Source: Eledone cirrhosa
Lineage: Eukaryota
Assembly: GCA_964016885.1 (NCBI GenBank)
Contig: OZ024740.1
Location: 300,142,001 to 300,206,000, forward strand
Length of the DNA: 64,000 bases
Reading direction: 5' to 3'
Under the pieces are notes generated by a model. The model ran no database searches. It saw only the letters and a program-made list of their open reading frames with translations, and was not told the DNA's origin. Shown here in pieces: positions 6,622-60,962 of this stretch. Position numbers and translations under genes: made by a program. Numbering within the stretch: position 1 is the stretch's first letter; every line of letters starts with the position of its first letter.

Positions 6622-6624
<3 letters not shown>

Positions 6625-6805
6625 CGAAGGAAATTTGGTAAGTAACCAGATGGACCATAACGCACCAAAGTACTCAATAATTAGGGTAGTAGAGTGGGTA
6701 ATAGGAACAAGTATGACCCCGACGACAGAGCTCAAGCCGTTTCGACGGCTAATTTGAATTAGCCGTCGAAACGGCTTGAGCACTGCCGTCGGGGTCATAC
6801 TTAAT

Positions 6806-6810
<5 letters not shown>
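6622..6810 (-). mobile_element. Fold-back mini-element derived from the 3' end of the Naiad-like PLE at 58-61 kb, in (TA)n
   Basis: 54-bp inverted arms 6701-6754/6757-6810 plus unpaired 6622-6700; homologous to the reverse complement of about 60831-60963; (TA)n on both sides. Confidence 0.85.
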
Positions 6811-26382: not shown

Positions 26383-26579
26383 ATATGAAAATGTTCAAGA
26401 CCCCGACGGCAGAGGTGAAGCCGTTTCGACGGCTATTTCTGTCCAGATATAGCCGTAGAAATGGCTTGAGCTCTGCGGTCGGGGGTCTTGAACATTTTCC
26501 TATTAGCCGCTCTATTACCCTAAGTATGGAGTACTCTGGTGTGTTATGGTCTATCTGGTTCCTTACCACACTTCTTTCG

Positions 26580-26582
<3 letters not shown>
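26383..26582 (+). mobile_element. Second fold-back mini-element of the Naiad-like family
   Basis: Arms 26383-26441/26444-26503, then unpaired 26504-26582; (TA)/(GA)n on the left and (CA)n on the right. Confidence 0.85.
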
Positions 26583-35615: not shown

Positions 35616-37359
35616 AGGAGAGAGAGAAGTATATATATAGATATATAGATATGAAAGTCAAGGGTTTTATAGGAAAATAAATCAACAAAAGAAACTATGA
35701 CAAAAGAAAATATTACGAATAGTGATATGGCGAATAACAGCTGGGAAAAAGAAAGAATATTTCAAGATTGTTTTGAAAAAGGAAAATAAAATAGACTTTG
35801 CAAATAGACCAAAGGGAATCCAGCAGGAATCGCAGATATAAATAAATGGAAATAAAAAGTGAAATCAAAAAGGTCACTATTGGCTTATATTACGTTCTTT
35901 CCTCTAATATATCATATATGAATGTCCATTCTTGTGATACGGAAATCCCCACGCGTAAATGTTTTATTTTATTAATAGAAGATCTAAGAAATATTTCTGA
36001 CAAGATCACTCACATCCATGATTCCCTACTCGGAGACTACTCTGACCTTTACTAAATCATGTATTCTGAATTCTTTCTTAGTACATAAGAAAGTTGAACA
36101 ACTTCATGTTAAAATCACTTTCCCGCTTCCATTAGATTCCATTTCAAATCTTAATACATTTTATAATATTGTTTCAGTTTGCGTATTAACAGCAATAACT
36201 AATACTCACCTCTGAAATATTAACTATTTTAGCAGCACATCATCCAACCTGATTTACTAAGTTTGCAACGCCAGAGTAAGGATGAATTACTATATAATTG
36301 CTTGATCTATTAAAAAAGGCAGCCAAATTTACGTCATTAATTACAGACTAACTCAATAAACGAGAAAGTACATTATCTATTATAGTCTCAGATCCAACAA
36401 TTTTTACGATAAAAATTGATTGCAAAGCCTTTGATTTGAAACGCGCTTCACCACAACATCTTGAGTATTTCTTAAAAGCGCTACCGACATGGTCATTTAC
36501 GTGAAATCCAAGCAAATACCAGAATAAACAAGATATCTCGAAACCCGGTTTGAACATATTAACACATTGAGACAATATAGAAGATCGGATGCTATACGAA
36601 GTGTCACTTTGCATATTATGTATGAAGACACGTAGAGAAATATAAGAATTAAAATTTGATTCCATTGAAACCGTTCTGTTGCAGGGTAAACTCAATGAAA
36701 GACACTACTTTGTGAATGTCTTGCATTTTCCTTATCATCTATTACAATATTTGATATATTTTCTATGTCACATTGAGTATTTAGGCTTTCTTTTGTTGCT
36801 TTTTTTAAAACTTAGAGTCGTTATTTCGTTTATTCAATGTACGTTCACTGGAAATTCTGGCCATCATCTTACGATTAATGACTACATTTTTTGACTCACT
36901 GACATGGCCACCCCAACAACATATTCCTTTTGTTATATGTGATTCTTGTCCATCTATTTCTACTAAAATCTTTTATGTATATTTTCCTGTCTTTTCTTTA
37001 CACGATTCTTAATTTCACTCACTGTCTTTCCTCTCATTCTATTACCCGCTCTATACTTACTAGCATTCTTAAACATTGGATGAAGATATTTCGACCCAAA
37101 ACTTATGAAGTCGATGGTTGGTTGAAATGTCGGAAGTAGATAGATCTAGTTTACCGTTGGTTAGGAGTCTTAATATTTATCATGAGTGATTTTGAGTAAC
37201 ACTGTGTGTTGGAAGTATTTGGATTATAAGAGCTCTTTAATAACAATCCAATTCTTTTCTTTACAAATATTGAGCTACAGATGTTCAGCTTATCCATATT
37301 TACCGATATATATGAATATATATATATATGAAAAAAACCACAGACCCTCCATCTCAACT

Positions 37360-37401
37360 GTACTTTTGAAAAGCAGGAGAACTGCGAAACCGGTAAAGGA
37401 C
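37360..37401 (+). ncRNA. Minimal type I hammerhead with U3-A8 core variant
   Basis: gtactt-TTGAAAA-GCAG-gagaa-CTGC-GAAA-CCGGT-A-aaggac: 5/6-bp stem I, 4-bp stem II, palindromic ACCGGT stem III, GUA triplet; AATAAA at 37405; inside a ~210-bp island between (TA)n tracts. Confidence 0.7.
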
Positions 37402-37530
37402 CCAAATAAATATATATGTATTTTTAAATAAGACTCCAGTTGCATTTTCGATTTCATCCTATTTTCTTCACACTTTCATTCGTGTAGGACACCGGTTATT
37501 TTTCATTTTGTAAAAAAACCTCACTTTCTG

Positions 37531-37564
<34 letters not shown>

Positions 37565-37565
37565 C

Positions 37566-40410
37566 ATTAATCCCCTTCCAAACACCAATGTATGTTATTG
37601 ATAGGTATACGTACAGGGATAAAATTATATTAATTTATATGAATGTGATAAATAAAGAACTAAAAAATATATATATGGAAAAACTGGGATAGATAAACAT
37701 TTTTATATAGAGTGTTGTATCTATACGGACATTGATGATATGAAAGATATTAATTATAAATGAAGTAGCGAGGTGAAAAATAACTTTAGGAAAAGAGAGC
37801 TGTGAGAGGGAAACGAAATTATGAAATTCTCTGTAGTAAAATATTAATTATAGGTTAACTAAATTAAAAAAATCAATTATAATAAATTGTAAAATATACG
37901 ATTAGGTATATATTAATTAAGTTTATAATATTTGAAGGTTTTTCTAATTCTATGATTGCAACATATAATTAATTCTTGTACTTATTTAATAGGATATCCT
38001 TATATTTCATGATTTTAAAAAGTTCTTGAGAGCATAACCTAACTCGTATCTGCTATTTTGATAAGGGGTGGCCCTTTTAAGCACGCTCCAGGTCAGGTTG
38101 TAATCAATGTTCTTTTTTTATAATTATTAATAGCTTCGGCCAAGGATGTAGTATTAGCTAATGCGGCATTTTTAAAGCTATGTATGTGGGTATTAAATCT
38201 TACTTTAAAATGGTTAGACGTAGCTCCTATATATGAATGAGTGGTGTCCTTAGTGCTAATTTTACATTCACAGACTATGTTATTAATAAGACAATTTCCC
38301 TTTAATGGGTAATTTCTTTTGATTCTAGAGTTACAACCATTCGTAAATATTATATCAGGGGAGTTAGTGAAAGTTGGTGTGGAGTTTACAGGACCTGCTA
38401 TAGGTGAAGGAGATGGTTGTTTGTTATGGTTTATTTTAGTATTATTATGGTTGGTTTGATGTGTTGGTGGTATATTTATGGGTTTTTTTAACAATTATAT
38501 GCGTTGTACGCACTTATATTCTGTTGTATACTTTTGGTAGTGGAGTAGGAAAATTTAACAGTAGATCTATTTAAAATTTGATGATATTTATGGTTTGGTG
38601 GGAAGTTTTTCTCTAGGATAGCAAATAATTTTTTAGGGATATGGTCTTTAATCTGTAGATTAAATGTAGCATTATACCAAGTAACACGTCTATTACGGTT
38701 TCGACATTGTTTCTTATATTTATACGATGTATCAGGAGGTTTACTAAGAGAGTTACTATTAGTGATTTTATTATTTATAGGTTTAGTTAGAGTAACTGAT
38801 TTAGGTGTTTTAGTCTGATTACTAGGAGTTTTGTTAGTTATGTTGTTAACATATGTTGGAGTATTAGGGTGAATGGTTTTTTGAGAGTCATTATATTGTA
38901 TGTGAGAAGAGGTAGAGAAATTAAGTTTTGGGTTGATGTTTTTAGGTGTAGTATGAGTGGCATTTAGGTGTAGGTTTTTCATTTGGTGTTTGTTGGTAAT
39001 ATTAGGTGGTATGTTTGAAATATTATTTGTGCAAGGTATGTAGACTAATTTGTTTTTGTGGCCGCTTCTAGCCGTTTTTATCGAATACATCCTGATTTGA
39101 TGAAAGGTTAGAGATTCTGAGTGAGATATTATATGCTAGGTATTTAAGGATAGATCTAGGGTGATTGGATTGTGAGTGTATGTAATGCAAGTTTTGGTTA
39201 GGTTTATGGTAAGGTTGGTTTATACCAGTATATAGGTCCATAGTTATATCTAGGAAATTGACTATTTTACTGGTGTTTTCAAATGTAATAGTGACATTAT
39301 AATAGTCTTTGAGGAAAGTTCTAATAAGTTTTTTATTTCTTTCAATTTGTGTTAGGCTAAGATTAGTGGATAGAAGACAGTCATCACGATATAAACCAGC
39401 TTTAATGTGGGGGAAAAGATGAATTAATGTTAAATAGAAGGAAGAGGCCCACAAGATCAGTAATTTGGGCAGAATCGCTAGAACTCATTGTTATGTCGAA
39501 GAGATTACTATATGTATTTCTGGTCCAGTATTCTTTCTGAAACTCCAGTAGTGTTTGTCTAGCGTTCGTGATAATATTGATGTCATCCATAGTTAAGTCT
39601 GATCTATTCTTGGCAAATATCAAGGGTTTGTTCAGGAGTATAGGTGATATAGGGGAATAATAACCATCTATATCGAATTGTAGAAATGAAGCAGAGGATT
39701 TATTTCTAATATTATGAAACCAATTAATTACTTGGGATGTGTTTTCCCAGAGGGGTAAGTTAACGTGTTTTCTTAATTGTGGGATAATTCTATCTAAAAA
39801 TGTTTTACTAATGATGCCAATGTCTGACTTGGAAGGGCATAACATCTTATAGAAGGATTAGAGTTGAAGTTAGATTTGTGAACTTTCAGGTTAAAGTGTG
39901 GTATTTTCAGTGCCAAAGGTTCAGTTCTGTCTTCAATATTGAGTTTATTTCCTATGTTGTATGTTTTGTTTTTGATATTGGTAAGAGCCGCATTATTTGT
40001 TTTTTTAATAATTTTTCCTGAGTTCTTTATAAATGAACTCATTATAATTATCAATATCCATGTGGTATAGATTTTCAGTTTTGTCAGAGTGGACCTGGAC
40101 ATTGCTAGATTTTTTTTAGTTCCAATAGGGTAGAGTCGAGATCCTTTTGAAAATTAAATTTATATTTCTTAAATCTGAGATGTTTGATTAAGTCAAATAG
40201 GTCTTTCTCGAAGTTTTCAAGCAAGAAGTTGTGTGGTGGGTTCTTATATGTGGTGAAATCATACAAACATTTTTTCTATCAAAGTGGTAGGCCCTACATC
40301 TGACCCTTTTGATGAATTGGTTGGTTTTTTTGTATCATAAGAAGTAAGAATTCGTCTTTAGAAGGTTTCGGTATATTCTTTAAAGATGTTCCCAAGTATT
40401 GTTTTCCCAT
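37566..40410 (-). mobile_element. Near full-length, frameshifted Naiad-like Penelope element (RT plus GIY-YIG)
   Basis: ATG at 40410 gives MGKQYLGTSLKNIPKP...FIKRVR; then FLQFDIDGYY, GLYRDDCL, YHKPN..L.YIH..SNHP, RRVTWYN...FP..H...NRSTVKFSYS, YIGAT..FK.RF..H..SF, LC..E...LLNK...CNH. Coding ends near 37925. Confidence 0.9.
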
Positions 40411-40693
40411 TGTAATATGGAAATTGGACAGGAAAGAGAGCTCAACTATATATACAAGAAGTCGGAAAATTATATATCTTTATATTTAATATGAACACTT
40501 GTATAAAATTAAGAGCGAAGGACGGCATGTATATGTGAAGGTATGTATATTTCCTCTGATAATTTGTAATACTTTTACATAGATATTAAACATGATATGC
40601 ATACCAACACACATATACATCCCAGAAACGATCGTAAAATGATGAATTTTTAATATAAGGAACTTGTTCTTTGTTTTTATTTCATTGTTTTTA

Positions 40694-40745
<52 letters not shown>

Positions 40746-49700: not shown

Positions 49701-52700
49701 CCACCACCACAACCACCACTGAAACTAAAAATAATAATAACAAAAATAACAATAAAAACAACAACAACAACAACAATGAGAATAACAACAACAACATCAA
49801 CACCAGCACAAAACAAAATGTGTCGTTTGCCAACGCAGCCAAGAAAAGCGAAATAATCCAGGTAACCAGGATGAATTAATTGAAGCCAAGAGAATGGTAA
49901 AAGAAGATGGGTACATGGTCCTCCTCACCCCCCCCCCCCCCTCCATCTAATAAAATGGAGCATCGGCACCTATGCACCGTGTCATATCGGACGATAAACA
50001 CAATATCACGCCCAGTAGGACGGGCATCCGAGTCCAAAATACAAAAAGCTTTGGGACATGTCTGGGCGAAAAAAACCCATATCGGACGTCGGCAGAAACT
50101 TGGAACCGTGGACGTGTTCTTTGGAACCCCACAGGAAGCCAGAGAACACTCCATGTCCCATTAAGGAGTGACGAGTTCACACTCGTCCCAAGCTATTGTG
50201 GCCAGGGACTCGTGAAGATCAGGGTGACCCACGTTCCGCTGGCCATCGAAATTCCCTGGCTAATGGTGGCATCAAGGCCAACACGAAAAAAATGAGGTAA
50301 CAAAAGAAAAGCAGGAGAACTGGTCCGGATCTGGGATGGAGCTCCTGATACAATCGGACCAAAAAACGTTGAGAAAATTCTAAAGGTGATAGACCTCAAT
50401 GACGGCAGCCACCTCACCGTAATTGTTGAGGGTAGAAGGCCTAAGTGTGTCGTTTGTGGCGAAGGAAACCACCTAAACGCTTTCTGCCCTCAGGCTAAAA
50501 GTTGAGGCCACCTCTCCTACCCACCCTAGTGACTCAAACATCAAAACCATCAGCAGAAGAAATGGCAGCAACAACTGTAGCTCAACAACAGCAGCAACTG
50601 TAGCGGTAACAATAGCAAAACCAACACAACAACCACCCACCGCGCCAGAATTAGCATCAGCGTCTACACCATCCACCACGCCACAACCAAAACCACCGCC
50701 TATGGCGGATTTTACATTCCTCGACCTATCCCAACTGACATATTGTGACGATGATGAGGAGTGGGAAATGGTATCAGGAAAAAGGAAAAAAAAGAAAAGA
50801 ACCCAAAGAAGAAAGAATCCTCTTCCTTCGCCCTCCAAAATACAAAATGCAGGGGGACACAAATAAGCAGACAAACAAAAAAGTTAAGACAGCTATGCCA
50901 CCACCCACACCAGCATCACCAGCCCCATCACCACCAATACCAATACCATTACCATCATTAACCCCTACACCACCATCACCAACACCACAAACATCACCAA
51001 AAAGCTAAACAGAAACAAACACAAACAAACGCAAACAAAACAAAACAACCAAAATGATACACACTACACAGCATTAAATTTGAACAACCACCAATTATTA
51101 CACTACATCCAACACAACACCAGCATCACAGAAAAAGACTACACAACACACCAAATATTCACACCACTTCCACACATGCAAATTACTCGCATCACGAAGA
51201 AAACGTACACGACACTAAAACAAAAATTCCCCAAGGACATCGGAACTTCCGACAAACACCCTCCAGGAGGATTTATAAGGACATCCTTCCGGAGGACGCC
51301 ACATGCAGTGAGGAGGGTAGAGAAACCATCCTTCCTCTACGAGAAGTGAGGTTAGTCGTCTTTCCCATCTTTTTTCACTCCTTTACAACATGACCTCACT
51401 CACAATAGACAGCAAAAATGCGCGTGGACTGAGGTCGGCATGGAAGCAGGGCCACCTGCTCAACGACCTCAGCTCACTAAACATAGATTTGGTGGCCCCT
51501 AGCGTGACAAAAAGCTCCGAAGCACGAGCCTTCGCACCCATCTTCGGCGGCTACGATGTGTACGCATCTCCCAGCCGTCCTGGATCGGGGGGAGGAGTTG
51601 CTGTGCTTTTTCGGAGAGGTTTGGATCTCGCCTACGAGCCATCTTCCTGGAGCCAGAAGGTAAGTTGGTGGTAATGGACGTAACCAGCGGAGATGGGCAA
51701 GCTTTCAGACTAGTGGCCGTCTATGACCTGTCAGGAGCAGGGCGGCCTGATTTCTTCCGGCGTCTGGAGACCTTTCTTGGAACGTCCCGGTATTTAGTGT
51801 TAGTGGGCGACTGGAACGGGATCTTAGATGTACGCTGGAACTGTGTGGGATTAGCGGATAGGGGAGGAAGGTGTAAAAGCCTCGCAAACCTGCTCAGACG
51901 GTTTCAACAGTCTGACAGGTACCGATTTGATTTCCCGAATGTGCCAATGTGGACATGGACAAACCGCATCGGGTCATCCAGATCATATCTAGATACAGTG
52001 TTTTGTAGGGAAATAGATAGGTCTAGCATAGGCTGTCCACATTTCAAAATAGTCGACTACACGGACCACAAATTCGTGATCTGTGAGGTTGACTTAGATA
52101 GGCTTCATAGACAGGGACACGGTTACTGGAAGCTAAACGCTCGTTAACAGCGAGCAAGGCCCTACAGAGACCGGATTAGCGAATTAGTTAAGCGGGCGTT
52201 GACGGGTGCCATCGTCAACAACAAAAGGTGGTTTTCTCTGAAAAAACAATTAGAATAGAGTCCATTAGGTTTAGTAAGGCTTTAGCAATAGAGAAAATAG
52301 AGAAGAAGGAGAACTAGTTAGAAAACTAGACGAGACGCTTAGTAAAGGCATCGCGACCGAGGTACTTGCGGCGAAATTGACATTTGACCAATTCTTCAAT
52401 GCAATGAACGAAGGCTGCGTTGTCAGAGCTAGGGTGCGTGCACCCAGAGACGAGATGACGAAAGCCGTTCAATGGGCCTGAGTGGCGTAGGCGCGTCGTG
52501 GCAACAAAGCAACGATCTGGTCTTTGGTGGACTACGACGGGCGCATGCTACTCGATCCCGGGTAAATGTGTGAAGCTTTCAGCAACACTTCGCTCAGCTG
52601 TTCGAGGAAGCGGCGGACGGATCACGGAATGAACTTTAGTTCCTGTCTCGACGGACTGCCGCGGCTCTCGGCCACTCAGGTGGGGTGTTGCGAATAGCCG

Positions 52701-55499: not shown

Positions 55500-57010
55500 A
55501 GTCTTCAAACACCCCACTGGCCTTAAATTAAGACCATTGAAGCTGGCCCACAATGTGAAGTACATAGACTGAACAGCTCTATAGACATTCTACTAAAACC
55601 ACTTCTCAAACACATACCAAGCCTTGTAAGAGACGGGCTAGACCTCTTAAACCCCCTCCTCAAACATGTCAACAACGACACTATTATTGTGTCTTTCGAT
55701 GTCGTGAACCTGTCCACGACGATCTCACACCTTTACGGACTAGAAGCAATATGATTCTGATTAGAAAATACTCCAAGGAGATACCGGAAACAATAGCAAA
55801 AAGCTTCAATGGATTAAAATTCATTTTACAAAATAATTTTTTTGATTTCGATGGCAACACTTACAAACAGATATGGGGACTGCACTTGATACAAAAGTCG
55901 CTCCAACTTATGCTAACTTAAACATGGCATACTTGGAAGTCCAGACGACATGTGGACATTTCAAATTAAATCACGGCTTGAAATTTCAAAAGTATTTGTC
56001 AGAGAATTGCATATGCTACTTGGATAACTGCCTTATTCCATGGTCTTACACACTCGACCAACTAAATAAATTTAAAAATGTAATTAACATTAACAGCACC
56101 AATAACCATATCCAATTCACAATGGAATACAATCAAGACCTCACATTTCTAAAAAAAGACACAAATATTGAAACTGACATCCACTACAAACCAACAGATT
56201 CCAAAGAAACTTGCTTTTCACCTCTAGCTATCCAAAGCACACGAACACCAACATCTCGTTTAATTTAGTAAAAGAATTTGCATATTCGTCTCCAATTATA
56301 AAACGCCGAATAAAGGACTCCAAAATTAGAGGAAATTCTGATCGATAGCCACCGTTATTAATAGATAATGGAATAGAAAAGGATAGAGCTATAGACATTG
56401 AAGAATTAAGAAAACCGAAACAAACTACTCAAGGTACATCCAATATTCTATTATATGTCTCAACACACAATCCAAGAAATACGGAAGCATACACCATTAT
56501 TCACAAGAACATCCCACTATTGAAATAAGGACGAAGTAGGAAAAAGTCACTTGACACACACAACATAAATCACTAAAAGCATTACTCACCAATGCCAAAT
56601 TACCCACCACAAACCCCAAACCGACTGTCAACAAATGTGGTCACTCTAAATGTGGAACTTGCACTCACCTCATTGAAAGCACAATGTATACATTTCAATC
56701 GGGACAAAATGTTGTTGCAAAATATCATTTCACTTGCTCATCATAACATTTAGTTCATGCCATAAAAATGTAAAGGATGTAATGAAGATTATATAGGGCA
56801 AACTGAATTCACGCTCAGAAACAGAATGACAATCCATCACCAACAATTACGAGACCCTACTACAAGACAAATACCACTCAGTGGACACGTAGACATATGT
56901 ACAAACAATAAGACACCGAAATTCCAAGTCTTCTCACTTCTATCTTTGCACTGATATTACAACAAACCAAATACGAATACATAAGGAAAATATTTTTATT
57001 CAAAAATATA
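55500..57010 (+). mobile_element. Decayed Neptune-like Penelope element (RT plus GIY-YIG)
   Basis: IVSFDVVNL, GTAL.TKVAPTYANL.MAYLE, YLDN (YLDD), IQFTME, TDIHYKPTDS, KCGHSKCGTC and CKGCNEDYIGQT..LRNRMTIH. Confidence 0.85.
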
Positions 57011-58213: not shown

Positions 58214-58230
58214 TATAGGAAAAGGTATGA

Positions 58231-58325
58231 CCCCGACGGGAGGGCTCAAGCCGTTTCGACGGCTATTTCTGGACTAAATTAGAATTTTTAGCCCGGTGAA
58301 TAAATAGCCGAACTTGTCAAGAGGG
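58231..58325 (-). ncRNA. Hammerhead motif (U3-A8 variant), copy in the inverted arm
   Basis: Minus strand reads ccctc-TTGACAA-G..CGGCTATTT...AAATAGCCG.C-GAAA-CGG...CCG-TC-gggg. Confidence 0.7.
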
Positions 58326-59144
58326 TACTCCCTTATATGGGAAGATTGTAGTTGTCAAGAAGATTGGTTAAAATTTGTTGTAAACAAAAATAAGTCTATC
58401 ATGGCATTTGGTGGGAGGTAGGGGTGGCCTAACTTGCCTGTAGAACAATAGGGGAGTGAGTGGAGCGGTCTAGCGTTCAAAGTGATATGTATACAGCAGA
58501 TTCTAAGGATAGTGTATGAAGTAGAGCAGGAAGGTTATAGAATAGGTAAATCGAATGAGAGTAGGAAACAATAATAGATAATAGAAAGAAATAAAAAAAT
58601 AAAAAATATATATAAAATTAGAGAGTGAGAAATGAATAAAAAAAAATCACAATGCTATCTTACAATTACAGGTTAATAAGTTCAGAATAGAAAAAAACTT
58701 GTAGAAATTGAGTAGTACCACAACTAATACAAAATTAAAGGGGTTTAACACGTCTGCTATAAGTAGTTAGTAAAATATATTCGGCCAATTCTATCTTAAA
58801 ATTACAGGGGTGGGGGAACTGATGCTACAGAGGCGCGATGGACTGCATCAGGGTAGGCGAAAGGGGAAAAGCAGACCAGGAAGAAAATAGGGGGTGGAAG
58901 GAAGTGATAGGATGAGACAGGTGGAAGAAGAAGACAAAGAAGAAAAGAAAAGAAAAGAGATATATCTACGTAAGTAAGCTGTGGTTTTCCCTAACTTATT
59001 CGGCAAGTGTGGGGGGGGGGATCATCCCTTGTCTACCCACCCACGTCGTTATGGGGTTTGAGGGCGAGTTATGTCCTACGCAATCTGTGTTTGCATTCGG
59101 TTACCAGTTCGTCTTTCTTGTTTAGAAGTTGCTCCTTCGAAAAC

Positions 59145-60093
59145 GATCTGTACTACCCATACAGGAAACCAAACGACAACCTGCACTATATCCACCGCCG
59201 TTCTACCCATCCTAGAAACATTACCAATAACATGCTTAAAAACATCTCCCTCCGCATATCTCGTTTGTCTGCTAATGAGCAGTTATTCGACGAACACGCG
59301 CCTCATTACAACCAGACCCTCAAGCGGAGTCGCTTCCGGGAGGAAATATGCTTTTATCCCGCTTCCCTTAGCGGAACCAGCAGGCGACACCGCCGCTCAC
59401 GCAACGTAACGTGGTTGAATCCTCCCCATAATGCCGAGGTGGCAACACCTATCGGGAAAATCTTCTTTAGACTCCTCGAAAAACACTTCCCACTACAACA
59501 CCGCTACCACAGCATAATCAATAAAAACACCATCAAACTCTCCTACAGCACCACACCTAACTTTGCATAAAACATCATCTCCTCAAACAACAAAAACCTC
59601 AACCCCTATGGAAGAAATTACCTAGACATCAGTGGAGAGCCGACCAGGAGGTGTAACTGTCCTGATAGATCTACGTGTCCCCCTCAACAATAAATGCCGA
59701 GAACGTAACGTGATCTACCAGTGCAACGTGAGGACGGACACCTCCAACAAAGCTTATATAGGATTAACCGCGTGTGACTTCAAGACCCGGCTCTACCAAC
59801 ACCGACATACTTTCCGAAACACTGTCCGGCGACATGCCACCACACTTTCGGGCCACATCTGGGACCTCCAAGATAATAATATAACCTACAATCTCACTTG
59901 TGGCTTACTGTCCAGAGCTAACTCTTACACGGGAGGACGCCGTCCGTGTAACTTATGCTCAGAGGAAACATTCCAAATGTTGTTTTCGAAGGACCAACTC
60001 CTAAACAAGAAAGACGAACTGGTAACCGCATGCAAACACAGATTGCGTAGGACTTACCTCGCCCTCAAACCCCATTACGACCCGGGTGGGTAG
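59145..60093 (+). pseudogene. Naiad-like ORF C-terminus (RT thumb, Cys motif, GIY-YIG) with one stop and one frameshift
   Basis: PYRKPNDNLHYIH..STHP, RNVTWLNPP, EKHFP..H, NKNTIKLSYS, CNC....CPL...C, VIYQC..YIGLT..FKTRL..H..F, CNLC.EE, LLNKKDE...CKH. Confidence 0.9.
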
Positions 60094-60774
60094 ACAAGGG
60101 CTGATACCCCCCACTTGCCGCATAAGTTAGGGGAACCCCAGATTACTTAGGTAGATGTATCTCTTTTCTTTTCTTTTCCTCTTTGTCTTCTACTTCCCCC
60201 TGTCTCATCCTATCACTTCCTTCCACCCCCTATTATCTTCCTGGTCTGCTTTTCCCCTTTCGCCTACCCCGATGCAGCCCAGTTCCCCCACCCCTGTAAT
60301 TTTAGGATAGAATTGGCCGAATACGTTTTACTAACTACTTATAGCAGACGTGTTAAATCCCTTTAATTTTGTATCAGTTCTGGTACTACTCAATTTCTAC
60401 AAGTTTTTGCTATTCTCAACTTATTAACCTGTAATTGTAAGATAGCATTGTGATTTTTTATTTATTCATTTCTCACTCTCTAATTTTATATATTTTTTAA
60501 TTTTTTATTTCTCTCTATTATCTATTATTGTTTCCTACTCTCATTCGATTTACCTATTCTATAACCTCCCTCCTCCACTTCATACACTATCTTTAGAATC
60601 TGCTGTATACATATCACTTTCAACGCTGGACCTCTCCACTCACACCCCTATTGTTCTACAGGCTAATTCAGCCACCCCTAACACCCACCAAATGCCATGA
60701 TAGACTTATTTGTGTTTACAACAAATTTTAACCAATCTTCTTGACAACTACAATCTTCCCATATAAGGAAGTCC

Positions 60775-60868
60775 CCTCTTGACAAGTTCGGCTATTTATT
60801 CACCAGGCTAAACATTCTAATTTAGTCTAGAAATAGCCGTCGAAACGGCTTGAGCTCTGCGGTCGGGG
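60775..60868 (+). ncRNA. Type I hammerhead ribozyme with U3-A8 core and 56-nt stem II
   Basis: cctc-TTGACAA(60779-85)-stem II CGGCTATTT/AAATAGCCG with inner GGCTAAA/TTTAGTC-GAAA(60842-45)-stem III ACGGC/GC(G)GT (GCCGT in sister copies)-C-gggg; GUC triplet ends at 60864. Confidence 0.75.
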
Positions 60869-60962
60869 TTATACTTTTTCCTATTTCCGACTCTACTATC
60901 ATAAGTATTGAGTACTCTTGTGCGTTATGGTCCATCTGGTTCCTTACCACAATTCCTTTGTT

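Follow-up and report, generated by a model that had tools for sequence, protein, structure and literature searches.

Between two TA tracts of the Eledone cirrhosa contig OZ024740.1 lies an island of about 200 nt (37330-37530, from the left TA tract to the (TA)17 tract) that carries a hammerhead ribozyme motif with U3-A8 in place of the ordinary C3-G8 core pair. Is this motif real, was its core pair inherited, and what kind of element left it there? We followed these questions within a 64,000-nt stretch of the contig, referred to here as the window, whose numbering is used throughout. The window is microsatellite-rich DNA of animal type, packed with broken retroelements.

The hammerhead motif and its predicted folding

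The sequence at 37360-37401 on the plus strand genuinely has the pattern of a type I hammerhead, with U3-A8 as its core pair; Table 1 lists its parts along with the features that surround it. The core UUGAAAA follows the type I form N3-U4-G5-A6-N7-N8-A9 with a Watson-Crick 3-8 pair, stem II is a hairpin that opens with G10.1-C11.1, and G12-A13-A14, the A15.1-U16.1 pair and H17 are all present (GAAA...U, A17). An earlier note, made from the letters alone, had named a TTGAAAA core, GCAG/CTGC, ACCGGT, a GUA triplet and AATAAA, and each of these is in the sequence. It had also given a 5/6-bp stem I. Five of the six positions do pair, but the stem is weak, since an A-G mismatch separates three pairs from two and only three pairs are contiguous. 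The label "minimal" does not hold in the strict sense. The strict published min-HHR descriptor (Cervera 2014, Fig. S7) returned 0 matches in the window with either C3-G8 or U3-A8 substituted; the island motif fails it because four bases rather than two separate GAAA from UH, and it therefore belongs with the variants described as having a small palindromic helix III.

Table 1. Coordinates of the island hammerhead, the island boundaries and neighboring elements (window numbering)
Feature	Position	Strand	Basis
Left TA-rich tract, short and imperfect	37306-37329	.	
12-nt terminal direct repeat, copy 1 (target duplication or unit overlap)	37331-37342	+	
Hammerhead stem I, 5' strand	37360-37365	+	descriptor match, folding
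Hammerhead core positions 3-9, UUGAAAA (U3-A8 variant)	37366-37372	+	descriptor match, folding
Stem II GCAG/CTGC, four Watson-Crick pairs, opening G10.1-C11.1, 5-nt loop GAGAA	37373-37385	+	
G12-A13-A14 and palindromic stem III A15.1-CCGG-U16.1	37386-37394	+	
GAAA	37386-37389	+	
Palindrome ACCGGT	37389-37394	+	
A17 (GUA triplet; predicted cut after 37395), then stem I 3' strand	37395-37401	+	
A17	37395	+	
Stem I, 3' strand	37396-37401	+	
AATAAA, then short TA-like run	37405-37410	+	
Antisense copy, collinear with stem III palindrome and core but lacking stem II; predicted core block	37491-37512	+	
12-nt terminal direct repeat, copy 2, period 181	37512-37523	+	
(TA)17 tract, common to island and 3' end of PLE-A	37531-37564	.	
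PLE-A: near full-length, frameshifted Hydra-like PLE, RT then GIY-YIG-type endonuclease	37565-40696	-	
Inverted copy of the PLE-B hammerhead, same UUGACAA core	58231-58324	-	
U3-A8 hammerhead, core UUGACAA, hairpin stem III, 3' end of PLE-B, unrelated to island	60775-60868	+	

Folding was evaluated with nearest-neighbour energies, from which tertiary contacts are omitted. By this measure the 51-nt motif folds no better than its shuffles (z -0.45), and stem II, which pairs with a probability of 0.96 in the isolated motif, falls to 0.52 in the whole island. A stable RNA hairpin would need more than the four bases that separate A15.1 from U16.1, so the ACCGGU palindromes of two copies would instead join as a 6-bp stem III, and the resulting double hammerhead would be cut after GUA. 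The 15.1-16.1 segment is indeed palindromic, as in small palindromic helix III motifs that pair between copies, and its predicted inter-copy pairing reaches a probability of 0.82-0.98 with two copies present (ACCGGU self-duplex, -8.3 kcal/mol). Stem I pairs at 0.08-0.19 in the monomer and at 0.18-0.42 in tandem. The hammerhead fold of a monomer lies at +0.8 kcal/mol against -7.7 for its best fold, and the double-hammerhead fold at -15.9 against -19.4, that is, 3.5 kcal/mol above the best. These energies suggest that the ribozyme of the family would require a dimer for its cut after GUA and would be slow; slow, dimer-dependent cutting has been reported for PLE minimal motifs (Cervera 2014, PMC4209133). 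The earlier note had stated that minimal PLE hammerheads with a palindromic stem III cleave as dimers, and for the island motif the need for a partner is supported as a prediction. The solo copy in the island has a mismatched stem I, finds no partner anywhere in the window and is followed by a segment complementary to it; it is predicted to be silent or nearly so.

This segment lies about 100 nt downstream of the core, where it is predicted to pair with the hammerhead and lock it. It complements the palindrome, the core and three stem I bases and leaves stem II free, and the minimum-energy and centroid folds of 37355-37515 both form the resulting antisense three-way junction. In the whole-island fold, the two palindromes pair at a probability of about 0.5 and stem I at about 0.001. 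The exact antisense pattern appeared in 5 of 20,000 shuffles, a frequency to be read in light of the pattern having been picked after it was seen, and the blocking of the core across the ensemble was equalled by 144 of 674 shuffled downstream stretches and by 23 of 365 unrelated ones. A role for the second ACCGGT (37491) as substrate strand for a single core was rejected, as the bases that follow it cannot form stem I.

The island and its neighbors

The earlier note had reported a terminal repeat at the ends of the island, and a 12-mer does recur there: 37331 and 37512 are its only positions on the two strands of the window. A comparable near copy at the same distance is found for 52 of the 60,719 non-simple 12-mers of the window. 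A MITE with inverted ends was rejected, the TA tracts being the sole inverted arms at the island ends. No second copy of the island was found within the window by blastn or nhmmer, and a 17-nt match at 50306, which covers the end of the core and stem II without GAAA or the palindrome, was set aside as chance. Nothing significant emerged from 16 tests of the island against the family of the 60.8-kb hammerhead, the ends of PLE-A, the left flank and the 55-57 kb element; the alignment with the 60.8-kb hammerhead was equalled by 160 and 168 of 200 shuffles, which bears out the claim that the two share no similarity. Searches for relatives elsewhere gave 0 exact matches to the core-to-palindrome pattern in prokaryotic genomes, and just three phage matches to the island (26-nt, AT-rich, E 0.6); a reading frame that crosses the island, used as an indirect probe for family copies, had no protein candidate. 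Three short motifs of the window are absent from the Craig 2021 supplement (PMC8557442). The Rfam hammerhead models matched neither the island motif nor the 60.8-kb motif at E values up to 10.

Tail to tail with the island stands PLE-A, whose open reading frame (about 40420-37915, minus strand) has several frameshifts and few stops. It is TA-bounded on both sides, contains a long low-complexity insert between the RT and the endonuclease, and has a 350-nt 3' UTR that ends at the common TA tract and yielded no hammerhead in the relaxed scan. PLE-B, a 5'-truncated Hydra-like element on the plus strand (58215-60960), is accompanied by an inverted 930-bp copy of its 3' end (58215-59144 vs 60884-59982) that is 91% identical. 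Both elements match a protein family of about 700-800 aa with an RT and a C-terminal endonuclease, and Hydra-type motifs occur in the window copies or in their homologues (among the long homologues, DKT in 20 of 27, an RWK-like motif in 14 of 27 and CxCx5C in 18 of 27). Judged by these motifs, PLE-A and PLE-B appear to conform to the Hydra clade in the sense of Craig et al. (PMC8557442); Pfam gave no match on the PLE fragments. Both copies of the PLE-B hammerhead have a long stem II with a 2x1 internal loop at its base, and a TTGACAA heptamer recurs about 38 nt upstream. The UUGACAA core is shared with the 58.3-kb inverted copy, so U3-A8 was already in the PLE-B RNA that was copied.

Other fragments are scattered through the window. 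Two TA-bounded islands of the PLE-B family (6624-6807 and 26384-26581) hold only the 3' half of the hammerhead, without the 5' core, and in both this half is duplicated as a palindrome centered in the stem II loop, which suggests template switching at the stem II hairpin. As these islands, at 6.6-6.9 and 26.3-26.6 kb, are similar in size to the one with the U3-A8 motif, short TA-bounded tails of PLEs are commonplace in this genome. To the left of the island, an imperfect hairpin on the minus strand (37075-37140) with GTCGAAATATC resembles the 3' half of a minimal hammerhead without the 5' core, and a decayed hammerhead at about 37070-37140 was rejected, the relaxed scan having missed it at a score of 7 or more. 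About 16 nt at 37039-37055 look like the tail of the PLE-B islands, a resemblance that is probably chance (4/300, 7/300 and 232/300 shuffles for the three copies). Nested non-LTR retroelements occupy 41.7-49.1 kb on the minus strand, one of which has open frames of 279 and 541 aa separated by a single stop at about 48263 and more than 1,200 homologues, the best 66% identical. A dispersed SINE-like repeat of 100-200 bp, with copies at 13.8, 16.0, 18.0, 26.9, 29.6, 31.1, 42.3, 46.4 and 57.0 kb, is 75-94% identical between copies. A third, more distant PLE-like element on the plus strand (55568-56945) survives as fragments with RT-like frames and a weak endonuclease profile match (56766-56945, E 0.003). 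An assembly gap of 200 N lies beside a (TG)n tract at about 25.5-25.7 kb.

Origin of the island and of its core pair

Could AT-rich DNA have arranged such a motif by accident? With any 3-8 pair allowed, a strict descriptor found the island motif as its sole match on both strands of the window, and 300 shuffled windows together gave 15 matches, 2 of which were U3-A8. Under slightly different descriptor limits, 2,789 locally shuffled windows gave 99 matches (20 with U3-A8, 4 with G10.1-C11.1) and a single one of island quality, meaning G10.1-C11.1, four Watson-Crick stem II pairs and a palindrome of at least 4. A relaxed scan that admits long loops returned 1067 U3-A8 against 277 C3-G8 chance matches from 1822 shuffled windows, and raw heptamers in the window number 71 for TTGANAA vs 31 for CTGANGA. 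In the shuffled control proposed in the earlier note, applied to the window only, the strict match exceeds chance, but under relaxed rules shuffled DNA produces U3-A8 about four times as often as C3-G8. The island motif is significant because of its compact textbook details and not because of the core alone. Coincidence would agree with the roughly 0.6 U3-A8 matches that loose descriptors yield per shuffled window, with the silence of Rfam, with a homologue search of the window, prokaryotic genomes, phages and proteins that found none, and with the rare matches that scanning many windows would turn up. It is nonetheless extremely improbable given the single match of this quality in all the local shuffles, the position of the motif in a TA-bounded island adjoining a PLE, and the presence of G10.1-C11.1 and the palindrome, which go beyond the demands of the Cervera and De la Pena descriptor and are named there as marks of real motifs (PMC4209133). 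Decay of the core from C3-G8 is likewise unlikely. Both changes would be transitions towards A/T in an AT-rich genome, and all 26 Hydra rows of Craig 2021 File S2 (PMC8557442) are C3-G8, a pair that the descriptor required. Against this, the two changes compensate each other exactly while the rest of the core, stem II and the palindrome are intact. A double transition with the 23 other constrained sites unchanged comes out 44 to 6669 times less likely than inheritance in a rough model (20% to 2% divergence, 60% of changes assumed to be the given transition), and the same core heptamer occurs in a published PLE family (Cervera 2014, PMC4209133). That the family had an ordinary C3-G8 core and the island copy took two transitions after insertion is accordingly a very improbable account.

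If the motif is neither accident nor decay, the nature of the element that carried it has to be weighed. The antisense segment and the 181-nt repeat period keep alive the idea of a 181-nt non-autonomous element, of which the island would hold a single unit and a short overlap: a non-LTR retrozyme monomer copied from circular RNA, in which the antisense segment would keep the ribozyme shut. The direct repeat at both ends, a length within the 170-400 nt range of animal retrozymes (PMC7229834), a 4-bp stem II and 6-position stem I like those of canonical metazoan type I motifs (PMC4209133), and the pairing of the antisense segment in both predicted folds, with its rarity among shuffles once picked out, are all consistent with such a monomer, and solo monomers are common (Li et al. 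2026 preprint, 10.64898/2026.07.22.740005). Retrozyme circles, however, are reported to pair extensively with themselves (Cervera and De la Pena 2020, PMC7229834), whereas the circularised 181-mer is 49% paired with a z of +0.48 vs 200 shuffles; the ensemble blocking is unexceptional, a single unit and 12 nt do not make a tandem array, and 78 of 500 shuffles match the score of the island against its own reverse complement. We regard the retrozyme as rather unlikely. A flip between self-complementary TA tracts, by inversion or mis-assembly, could alternatively have turned round the missing, ribozyme-bearing 3' end of PLE-A, and this too is unlikely. PLE-A does end at the common TA tract with a UTR devoid of a hammerhead in a clade that has hammerheads throughout (Craig 2021, PMC8557442), the island once flipped would complete it in sense, and there is a weak alignment (1 of 100 shuffles, in low-complexity sequence) between the PLE-A UTR and the stretch of the PLE-B UTR that lies ahead of the PLE-B ribozyme. 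Two elements inserted tail to tail in one TA tract would give the same picture, though, and the island has no significant similarity to either end of PLE-A: its best result there, in a set of 16 tests, was equalled by 6 of 200 shuffles, and 54 of 834 window stretches score as well.

We favor, and consider probable, an origin of the island as the 5'-truncated 3' end (pseudo-LTR) of a PLE, probably of the Hydra clade, and likely inserted in (TA)n beside another PLE. A PLE endonuclease would have opened a (TA)n tract, and reverse transcription of uncut RNA would have begun some distance (about 135 nt) beyond the cut site and ended at a point 36 nt upstream of the core, from a parent family in which U3-A8 would be an inherited compensatory pair. 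The island core lies 165 nt from the right TA tract, within the roughly 100-200 nt expected of a Hydra ribozyme near a 3' end that abuts (TA)n, and the PLE-B hammerhead is 182 nt from its own end. Hydra hammerheads are listed at roughly 90-210 nt from the 3' end, and nearly all of the families prefer (TA)n (Craig 2021 File S2, PMC8557442). Past the ribozyme, the plus strand of the island has a pyrimidine fraction of 0.64 vs 0.66-0.67 in the sense 3' UTR of PLE-B. Profile searches upstream on the plus strand of the island found no RT/GIY-YIG open reading frame, as expected of a truncated copy, and because no such frame is attached or upstream, the link to PLEs and to the clade is drawn by analogy. 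Most PLE hammerheads are single motifs from truncated copies (Cervera 2014, PMC4209133), and an anole PLE in vitro mostly inserted uncut RNA, with internal initiation (Frangione 2024, PMC11167929). The 12-nt terminal repeat is not expected of plain (TA)n insertion. A broader proposal, in which the hammerheads of TA-targeting PLEs are largely U3-A8 in this lineage and the island is a 181-nt mini-element with an antisense lock that holds until a second unit is transcribed, is unlikely.

U3-A8 cores and comparison with known systems

The main paper on dimeric PLE hammerhead variants is reportedly that of Lunse et al., and the primary mutagenesis of 3-8 exchanges is said to be that of Przybilski and Hammann. 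The U3-A8 pair is no surprise: the natural variant is already published and is common in Schistosoma PLEs (PMC4209133, PMC3088659). The two unrelated U3-A8 motifs of the earlier note are indeed independent, and the core of the 60.8-kb motif is shared by its inverted copy at 58.3 kb. All three intact-core hammerheads of the window, from two families, are U3-A8 and none is C3-G8, so the suggestion that the variant is common and under-counted in this lineage is plausible. Two families are too few, however, and AT-rich DNA favors chance U3-A8 matches fourfold. Published descriptors demand CUGANGA and so miss U3-A8 (PMC4209133, PMC8557442). The variant makes up 2 of 56 representatives in Cervera 2014 Fig. 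S3 (PMC4209133) and none of the 26 rows for Hydra elements in File S2 of Craig 2021 (PMC8557442), where the descriptor required CUGANGA; no listing of U3-A8 in Hydra-clade elements was found in a partial coverage of the literature, which makes this a weak absence.

The window hints that U3-A8 may be the core normally found in two unrelated families of a single genome. One of these families is firmly placed on a Hydra-like PLE, and for that clade only C3-G8 has been listed so far. If the hammerheads of TA-targeting PLEs have largely switched to U3-A8 in this lineage, a whole layer of ribozymes would be invisible to CUGANGA descriptors and to Rfam. Should a genome scan agree, hammerhead counts based on CUGANGA would be too low, and PLE clades reported to lack hammerheads would merit a recheck with any 3-8 pair. 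The U3-A8 pair and dimer-dependent PLE hammerheads are both already in print, and the significance is modest. If real, the antisense lock would offer an easy system in which to study how the RNA of a PLE or retrozyme escapes its own cleavage, given that uncut RNA is the form inserted.

About 1,300 U3-A8 motifs were found in Schistosoma mansoni via the Cercyon PLE (Cervera and De la Pena 2014, PMC4209133). These min-HHRs share with the island motif the U3-A8 pair, G10.1-C11.1, a weak stem I and their mostly single occurrence, and the representative S. mansoni(4) in Fig. S3 has the same UUGAAAA heptamer. They differ in having a bulged base after A9, a stem II of 4-6 bp and GAAA separated from UH by only two bases; the island motif lacks the bulge, its stem II is 4 bp long, its spacer is the four-base CCGG and its site is GUA. 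The small palindromic helix III motifs of Marsupenaeus japonicus, Drosophila and Aedes (PMC4209133) resemble the island in their short palindromic stem III and predicted need for a dimer; that of the shrimp M. japonicus is likewise bulge-free, with four pairs in stem II, four palindromic bases within stem III and A17, but the motifs of all three differ from the island in being C3-G8.

Hydra-clade hammerheads lie, like that of the island, near the 3' end of (TA)n-targeting elements (PMC8557442). Penelope-1_NV and Hydra-2_aMil share the absence of a bulge, the 4-bp stem II and GUA, and the same ACCGGT stem III is listed for Chlamys-2_cBra. In contrast to the island, the Hydra rows are C3-G8 (26 of 26) and have a stem III of 3-4 bp with a loop of 1-3 nt, and the island lacks the linked open reading frame of these elements. 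Non-LTR retrozymes (PMC7229834; 10.64898/2026.07.22.740005) share its size, low GC content, small non-coding unit, type I hammerhead and possible long target duplication, whereas the island has no tandem array, no excess self-pairing as a circle and, by eye, no distal stem I. The core pair itself shows the same covariation as natural U3-A8 hammerheads described by Perreault et al. 2011 (PMC3088659), who regard U3-A8 as compensatory and cite earlier in vitro activity; no rate for a comparable motif was found there. The architecture of the island hammerhead is closest to that of the shrimp PLE motif and to the bulge-less Hydra motifs with a four-pair stem II and a GUA site (PMC8557442).
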